DNA from: Escherichia coli
Lineage (GTDB): Bacteria > Pseudomonadota > Gammaproteobacteria > Enterobacterales > Enterobacteriaceae
Strand: one strand, 5' to 3'
NCBI RefSeq assembly: GCF_024502345.1
Contig: NZ_JALDNN010000001.1
Length of the DNA: 64,000 nt
Within the stretch, counting starts at the first letter, position 1. Every line of letters begins with the position of its first letter. Position numbers and translations under genes: made by a program. Shown in pieces: positions 26,045 to 26,782 of this stretch. The notes beneath the pieces were generated by a model. The model saw only the letters and a program-made list of their open reading frames with translations, did no database searches and was not told where the DNA came from.

Positions 26045-26782
26045 ATGTCACAGTCTACATCCGTGCTTCGTCGTAATGGATTTACTTTTAAACAGTTTTT
26101 TGTTGCTCACGATCGCTGTGCGATGAAAGTGGGAACGGATGGCATTTTGCTGGGCGCATGGGCACCGGTGGCTGGGGTGAAACGTTGCCTTGATATCGGC
26201 GCGGGTAGCGGGTTGCTGGCACTGATGCTGGCGCAGCGAACCAGTGACAGCGTGATAATTGATGCCGTTGAGCTGGAAAGTGAAGCTGCCGCGCAGGCGC
26301 AGGAAAATATCAACCAGTCCCCGTGGGCAGAGCGGATTAACGTCCATACGGCGGATATTCAGCAGTGGATCACACAGCAGACAGTACGCTTCGATTTAAT
26401 CATCAGTAACCCACCTTACTATCAGCAGGGAGTAGAGTGCGCGACACCTCAACGGGAACAGGCTCGCTATACCACTACGCTTGATCACCCATCGCTGCTG
26501 ACCTGTGCGGCGGAGTGCATTACCGAAGAGGGATTTTTCTGCGTGGTGCTGCCAGAGCAGATTGGTAATGGTTTTACTGAACTGGCATTAAGCATGGGCT
26601 GGCATTTACGTTTGCGGACGGATGTGGCGGAAAACGAAGCGCGACTGCCGCATCGGGTGCTGCTGGCATTCTCCCCGCAGGCGGGAGAATGCTTTAGCGA
26701 TCGCTTAGTCATTCGTGGGCCAGACCAGAACTATTCCGAAGCGTATACGGCGCTGACCCAGGCTTTTTATCTGTTTATGTAA
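26045..26782 (+). CDS. trmN6: tRNA1(Val) (adenine37-N6)-methyltransferase
   Basis: ATG at 26045 gives the 245-aa [19 protein letters not shown]... protein with SAM motif DIGAGSG and NPPY catalytic motif; recognised as YfiC. Confidence 0.87.

Follow-up and report, generated by a model that had tools for sequence, protein, structure and literature searches.

The window analysed here is a 64,000-nucleotide stretch of the Escherichia coli contig NZ_JALDNN010000001.1 (assembly GCF_024502345.1), in which two genes, trmN (also named yfiC, trmN6 or trmM) and nadB, face each other and end on the same DNA. The trmN CDS lies on the plus strand at 26045..26782 (245 aa, ATG at 26045, stop at 26780-26782), as delimited by its open reading frame, the profile NF047853 and annotation, and the nadB CDS runs on the minus strand from 28389 to 26767 (540 aa, ATG at 28389, stop at 26767-26769) according to its open reading frame, the profile NF006567 and annotation. 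A 16-bp segment at 26767..26782, of sequence TTATCTGTTTATGTAA, is common to both genes on opposite strands, as read from the sequence and the ORF list. From these same two sources, trmN ends on the plus strand in ...GCT TTT TAT CTG TTT ATG TAA and nadB on the minus strand in ...CAT TAC ATA AAC AGA TAA, the stop of the latter being the reverse complement of 26767-26769. Within the 16 nucleotides each gene has its last five codons, the stop included, preceded by a single base of another codon: on the plus strand TTATCTGTTTATGTAA holds the last base of Phe241 and then Tyr-Leu-Phe-Met-stop of TrmN, and on the minus strand the last base of His536 and then Tyr-Ile-Asn-Arg-stop of NadB. Within the overlap, the third codon positions of trmN and nadB coincide.

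Both open reading frames are genuine complete genes. Profile searches assigned TrmN to the equivalog NF047853 over positions 1-244 of 244 (420 bits) and NadB to NF006567 over positions 2-535 out of 537 (1047 bits), the products being by profile match a tRNA1(Val) m6A37 methyltransferase and L-aspartate oxidase respectively, and the 540-aa NadB matched the crystallised protein (1CHU, 1KNP/1KNR) along its whole length, residues 1-540. The longest plus-strand reading frame of trmN opens 40 codons further upstream with a GTG at 25925 and would encode 285 aa, a mere mechanical extension (25925-26044); annotation and the HMM both back the ATG at 26045 and the 245-aa product. Beyond trmN, a 52-aa ORF at 26782-26940 on the plus strand opens with an ATG whose A is also the final base of the trmN stop (TAATG). 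This ORF was rejected as a third gene and is most likely not a gene at all, its start and its sequence not being conserved outside Escherichia and its position being antisense to nadB.

An earlier, sequence-only reading of this locus had described a 16-bp 3' overlap of trmN6 and nadB at 26767-26782, with stops at 26780..26782 and, on the minus strand, at 26767..26769. The stops agree with the sequence and the ORF list, the overlap is found in addition in the annotation of strains K-12 MG1655 and HKUOPY1, and the two gene names are borne out by the full-length family profile matches and by annotation. In RefSeq, nadB of K-12 MG1655 occupies 2710420..2712042 and yfiC 2712027..2712764, an identical 16-bp overlap, and the RefSeq annotation of HKUOPY1 likewise carries a 16-bp trmN/nadB overlap. 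The 1.6-kb trmN-nadB region was found in 5,425 of 5,426 complete E. coli genomes and a 61-nt junction was recovered at 95% identity or more in 5,408 of the 5,426, its matches, among those listed, always falling under both gene annotations. That a sequencing error, a mis-called stop or a wrong gene model could fake the overlap is therefore ruled out in practice by the K-12 reference and RefSeq geometry, by the 5,408 E. coli genomes and by 76 of 80 species described below, as well as by the fact that both proteins reach the ends of their family profiles and that crystallised NadB has 540 aa; the chance of such an artefact is practically nil. A mis-called stop in particular, which the earlier reading had named as what could undo its claim, is excluded by the K-12 reference, the 5,408 genomes and the related species.

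Among convergent pairs of E. coli, the nadB/trmN overlap is statistically unremarkable. A published survey (PMC4161906) found 663 adjacent gene pairs to overlap in one E. coli genome, including 75 convergent ones. Within 50 kb around the locus in K-12, three of eight convergent CDS pairs overlap: nadB/yfiC shares 16 bp, and mltF/tadA and yfiM/kgtP share 4 bp each. Two further convergent overlaps of 4 bp were observed in the window: at 41453-41456, between a 178-aa plus-strand ORF and a 518-aa minus-strand ORF (tadA/mltF by K-12 annotation), and at 14358-14361, between a 466-aa plus-strand ORF and a 114-aa minus-strand ORF (kgtP/yfiM).

The overlap was then followed across the Enterobacteriaceae with one genome per species, which gave 80 loci whose TrmN is 67-96% identical to the query and in each of which both ORFs were traced to their stops. 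The gene order was srmB (minus strand), trmN (plus), nadB (minus) and rseD-rpoE (plus), and trmN and nadB were convergent and overlapping in all 80 loci. In the window, RseD, which annotation gives as the leader peptide of rpoE, is represented by a 51-aa plus-strand ORF that lies ahead of rpoE at 28645-28800, and the rseD ORF overlaps the rpoE start by 4 bp in annotated strains. An overlap of exactly 16 bp was obtained by direct ORF tracing in 75 of the 80 species, and in 76 when Kluyvera genomosp. 3 YDC799 (L029) is counted. In this genome, tblastn recovered nadB at 3723-5337 in three segments with breaks near aa 50 and 334, which suggests frameshifts or assembly errors; its last segment ends 16 bp inside trmN and the junction with trmN is normal.

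The remaining four loci overlap by 8 bp (L006, L026, L079) or by 12 bp (L066). In Escherichia sp. ESNIH1 (L026), a 14-bp tandem duplication at about 3725-3752, in which TCTCTTTATGTAGT occurs twice, spans the trmN stop; NadB reads ..NYIKR from the distal copy and then Thr-Thr-stop in the proximal copy, which cuts the overlap to 8 bp, and the duplication is a partial 'resolution' of the trmN/nadB overlap. In Escherichia sp. MOD1-EC7003 (L006), trmN is intact and a 1-nt deletion in the nadB tail gives the 8-bp overlap; what is left of nadB there, three short fragments (aa 1-89, 335-394 and 474-534) within about 500 bp at 3743-4249, looks like a degraded pseudogene.

This constancy of length was examined from the side of TrmN. 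Its C-terminus reads FYLFM in every Enterobacteriaceae species surveyed, with a single YIFM as the exception, and members of the TrmN family as distant as 38% identity still end in ..LT..FYL, about two more residues and the stop codon. A search for a solved structure of a TrmN relative returned none at E <= 1e-10; in an AlphaFold model of TrmN (64 diverse sequences; mean pLDDT 92.5), residues 241-245 follow a helix at 232-238 and are placed with confidence (pLDDT of about 89). From family alignment and model together, the C-terminal end of TrmN is thus old and constrained. The only positions that vary within the 16 shared bases, in the alignment columns of 78 sequences, are silent sites of trmN and the choice of its stop codon.

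The last four residues of NadB, which are [Y/H][I/M][N/K][R/K] in the 78 sequences, follow these changes one by one, each variant of the tail being the mirror of either a synonymous substitution in trmN or the stop codon that trmN uses. A trmN stop of TAA/TAG versus TGA sets Tyr or His in NadB, TTT versus TTC for the trmN Phe sets Ile or Met, the third base of the trmN Leu codon sets Asn or Lys, and CTN versus TTR for this Leu sets Arg or Lys. The nadB stop is itself the complement of the TT[T/C]-TA of Phe241-Tyr242 and was observed as TAA or TAG and never as TGA, because the complement of the TrmN Phe-Tyr codons reads so.

To what extent the TrmN peptide fixes the length was assessed by enumerating all 27,648 synonymous encodings of LTQAFYLFM* with a convergent ORF entering in each phase. 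In the observed phase, the convergent ORF stopped exactly 16 nt in for all 27,648 encodings; in the next phase it always stopped 8 nt in; and in the third phase it stopped 12 nt in if Leu was CTA or TTA, and otherwise at 30 nt or more. These lengths match those of the exceptional loci, and the locus with a 12-bp overlap (L066) has Leu encoded by CTA. The entropy of trmN third positions was 0.52-1.54 bits inside the overlap as compared with 0.58-1.9 bits in flanking codons; since silent-site entropy inside the overlap is not below that of the flanks, the NadB tail adds no visible constraint. From these sequence comparisons, the coding constraint on the TrmN C-terminus fully accounts for the strict conservation of the overlap, with no need for selection on the overlap.

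Conversely, it could be argued that the NadB tail [Y/H][I/M][N/K][R/K] is itself functional and that the overlap is kept by selection on both proteins, given that a basic C-terminal residue (R/K, one M) and an aromatic residue or His at position -4 are present in nearly all species. Those residue classes are, however, all that the complement of Tyr-Leu-Phe-Met-stop can encode, and the trmN silent sites are equally variable inside and outside the overlap. Moreover, three loci (L026, L066 and L079) carry frame-shifted tails on a nadB that is otherwise intact, the NadB of outgroups has no such tail, and homology to distant structures ends near residue 520. A functional tail is accordingly held to be highly unlikely, and the variability of the tail suggests that it is under no selection.

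The outgroup evidence came from representatives of distant TrmN clusters (45-54% identity) that were placed on their contigs, in which linkage of trmN and nadB proved variable outside the Enterobacteriaceae. In a Yersinia-type locus (L085), the two genes are separated by a spacer of 70 bp with an 8-bp GC hairpin, AGGGCGCA(11 nt)TGCGCCCT, and in another locus (L088) by a spacer of 119 bp. A branched-chain amino-acid transporter gene stands between trmN and nadB in Hafnia-type loci (L083/L084). In a Rosenbergiella/Tatumella-type locus (L087) and in one more (L089), no nadB lies next to trmN, which is followed directly by rpoE-rseA. The NadB proteins of L085, L083 and L088 end in ...PTIL[H/Q]P*, that of the Yersinia-type locus in ...TILHP, and align to E. 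coli ...PSILSP, which is followed by GNHYINR*. By this alignment, the segment at 26767..26790 on the minus strand encodes a C-terminal extension of NadB relative to the outgroups (Gly534-Arg540 and the stop). Throughout the Enterobacteriaceae, NadB runs 4-7 residues beyond the outgroup end point, and the linker from ..LSP to the last four residues has a variable length of 0-3 residues. That homology of NadB to distant NadB/SdhA/FrdA structures stops near residue 520 is consistent with a dispensable tail.

Parsimony, applied to a small sample of five outgroup contexts in four or five lineages, points to the loss of a spacer rather than to its gain. The ancestor of the Enterobacteriaceae would have lost the spacer together with the original nadB stop, after which nadB would have been extended to the first stop offered by the complement of trmN. 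The short NadB tail would have been tolerated, its last four codons being a passenger of the trmN end, and the overlap would have been frozen in length, the TrmN end being unable to change. The overlap is thus very probably a passive, family-old, tail-to-tail leftover of a lost spacer.

The geometry has direct consequences for transcription. With stops that lie 16 bp inside each other there is zero intergenic DNA and, as the sequence-only reading had noted, no room for an intergenic terminator. Because the CDS stops overlap, each complete mRNA is complementary to its partner over at least 16 nt plus a downstream stretch, and because neither gene has an intergenic terminator, each transcript runs antisense into its partner. 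The assertion of the same reading that the transcripts must read into each other follows from this geometry and agrees with a published RNA-seq listing (PMC12288877).

Searches for a dedicated termination signal gave negative results. A scan of 2.9 kb for intrinsic terminators returned 5 weak sites as compared with 3.2 expected, none of them at the junction, and segments of about 220-230 nt, folded for either strand, did no better than shuffled sequences (z of -0.5 and -0.7). For the 180 nt past each stop in 22 species, RNAalifold gave no conserved structure (-2.15 kcal/mol and 1 compensatory pair past one stop, -4.6 kcal/mol and none past the other), and no Rfam family was found within 26300-27300, the sole match having E = 0.98.

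One local structure did stand out, a perfect 10-bp inverted repeat with a 7-nt loop, GCATTCTCCC/GGGAGAATGC, at 26666..26692, which is present on both strands inside trmN, in the codons for Ala-Phe-Ser-Pro...Gly-Glu-Cys. It is GC-rich and, on the minus strand, occupies nt 75-101 beyond the nadB stop. On a rival reading, it would set the 3' end of the nadB mRNA in E. coli, either by acting much as an intrinsic terminator does, by pausing polymerase and so placing head-on collisions, or by blocking exonucleases. The stem is worth about -17 kcal/mol on both strands, and collisions at bidirectional terminators reportedly require a stem-loop to be positioned (bioRxiv 10.1101/2022.10.23.513370). On the other hand, it has no U-tract on either strand and is not among the sites given by the terminator scan. 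All ten pairs form in E. coli and E. whittamii, 7 of 10 in E. albertii and 3-9 elsewhere, so the stem fades fast outside Escherichia and does so without compensatory change. Over 22 species, 54.1% of cells were paired as compared with 53.7% in shuffles, and the leftover complementarity comes in any case from the conserved Ser-Pro...Gly-Glu codons. Chance alone would, by our estimate, yield some two perfect 10-bp inverted repeats (loop of 40 nt or less) per 64 kb. The repeat was rejected as a conserved terminator because of this decay beyond Escherichia and the lack of covariation, and an embedded terminator that fixes the nadB 3' end is improbable; as a hairpin specific to E. coli, it could still act as a local pause site or 3' end stabiliser for the nadB mRNA.

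The composition of the RNA beyond each stop was also profiled. Untranslated antisense RNA is a substrate for Rho. The nadB read-through RNA, antisense to trmN, is C-rich and G-poor over 26507..26666 on the minus strand, a candidate Rho-loading region, with a C/G ratio of 1.8-2.2 at 101-260 nt past the stop and of 2.0-2.2 at 141-260 nt. The trmN read-through RNA, antisense to nadB, is mildly C-rich over 26823..26942 on the plus strand, a weaker candidate by the same profile, its ratio being about 1.4-1.5 between 41 and 160 nt from the stop and about 1.5 at 61-160 nt. The C-rich, G-poor untranslated stretch that Rho calls for is thus present, although such a composition is a weak criterion, typical of any RNA antisense to a CDS. 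Each mRNA would then continue as untranslated RNA antisense to the partner gene until Rho, acting on its C-rich stretch, ends the read-through, with occasional head-on encounters of polymerases. From composition and general knowledge, the end of both read-through RNAs is most likely Rho-dependent, and any mutual interference of trmN and nadB would be incidental rather than an evolved switch.

Transcription of nadB is repressed by NadR and rises when NAD is scarce, and the concept of the excludon is said to come from Sesto et al. An evolved convergent excludon would make nadB and trmN mutually antagonistic through transcriptional interference or through RNase III cleavage of the RNA duplex: NAD scarcity would raise nadB transcription, which would run antisense through trmN, as trmN transcription would through nadB. 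To our knowledge, there is no functional link between NAD synthesis and m6A37 of tRNA-Val. The excludon reading draws on a 3' end overlap that is complete and unavoidable, on its retention through the whole history of the family and on the presence of the pair in the MG1655 'excludome', in which nadB-yfiC is one of 165 convergent excludons recovered from half or more of 58 MG1655 RNA-seq samples (PMC12288877, ExcludonFinder, Table 1). That list also takes in two 4-bp neighbours, mltF-tadA and yfiM-kgtP, so that virtually any pair of expressed genes whose CDSs overlap can be expected to appear in it. Retention in the family is in turn fully accounted for by the TrmN coding constraint, and relatives cope with a spacer or with unlinked genes.

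In the accessible part of the supplementary text of a p19 dsRNA-capture study (PMC7373196; about 0.98 million characters, possibly incomplete), nadB, yfiC, b2574 and b2575 were absent; weak expression of the two genes could account for this. Likewise, nadB/yfiC was not found in the available portion of the supplementary text of two Term-seq studies (PMC7815308 and PMC12207403). An evolved excludon is, on balance, clearly unlikely. Of the interpretation given by the sequence-only reading, the geometry and the forced overlap of transcripts stand, but the part that invoked antisense interference or shared termination received no support, with no credible terminator on either strand and no conserved structure in 22 species. 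A stronger version, in which loss of the spacer created an obligate NAD-responsive excludon (nadB antisense lowering TrmN and tRNA-Val m6A37) or left head-on collision as the sole terminator of both genes, is decidedly improbable; if true, it would couple NAD biosynthesis to a tRNA modification.

Taken together, the trmN/nadB overlap is real, ordinary and already known from reference annotation and from a published list of overlapping transcripts. It carries little weight for biology at large, and serves as a worked example in which the invariant C-terminal peptide of one partner dictates the stop and the last residues of the other gene, freezing the length of the overlap. As the overlap is frozen family-wide by a coding constraint, its conservation alone is not evidence of a regulatory function. 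In practice, a deletion or tag at the 3' end of either trmN or nadB damages the other gene, and knocking out either gene together with the junction gives a double mutant.

Several known arrangements resemble this junction. The Yersinia-type locus (L085) shares with E. coli the order srmB, trmN, nadB, rseD-like ORF, rpoE, rseA and the convergence of trmN and nadB, but its stops are divided by the 70-bp hairpin spacer and its NadB has no C-terminal extension. Bidirectional terminators between convergent E. coli genes have reportedly been described by Ju et al. in 2019 using SEnd-seq. Like trmN/nadB, they concern convergent pairs with no canonical intrinsic terminator and with potential head-on encounters of RNA polymerases; collision-driven bidirectional termination has been proposed at convergent E. 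coli genes, with a stem-loop reportedly needed between the gene boundaries (bioRxiv 10.1101/2022.10.23.513370). The trmN/nadB junction, in contrast, lacks both intergenic DNA and a conserved stem-loop, and neither an element between gene boundaries nor, at the site itself, a stem-loop readable on both strands was found as for such terminators. With convergent excludons, the pair has in common the overlapping transcription of convergent neighbours; however, these are defined by mutually exclusive expression (interference or RNase III) and overlap in long 3' UTRs, whereas nadB-yfiC is known here from its geometry and from a listing and overlaps in the CDSs themselves.

A further parallel is offered by the short convergent CDS overlaps of bacterial genomes, such as those of E. 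coli (PMC4161906; locally tadA/mltF and kgtP/yfiM), in which, as in trmN/nadB, two bona fide genes share their 3' ends through movement of a stop codon. As in any convergent overlapping pair, the genes here are real and complete, share 3' nucleotides and do so reproducibly in orthologous loci. The common overlaps of 4 nt are also in the same phase as trmN/nadB, with coinciding third positions (16 = 3x5+1; phase described in bioRxiv 10.1101/2025.11.07.687268). The trmN/nadB overlap differs in being longer than the modal 4 nt and in having its length fixed by the invariant C-terminal peptide of one partner, hence its unusual stability throughout the family.
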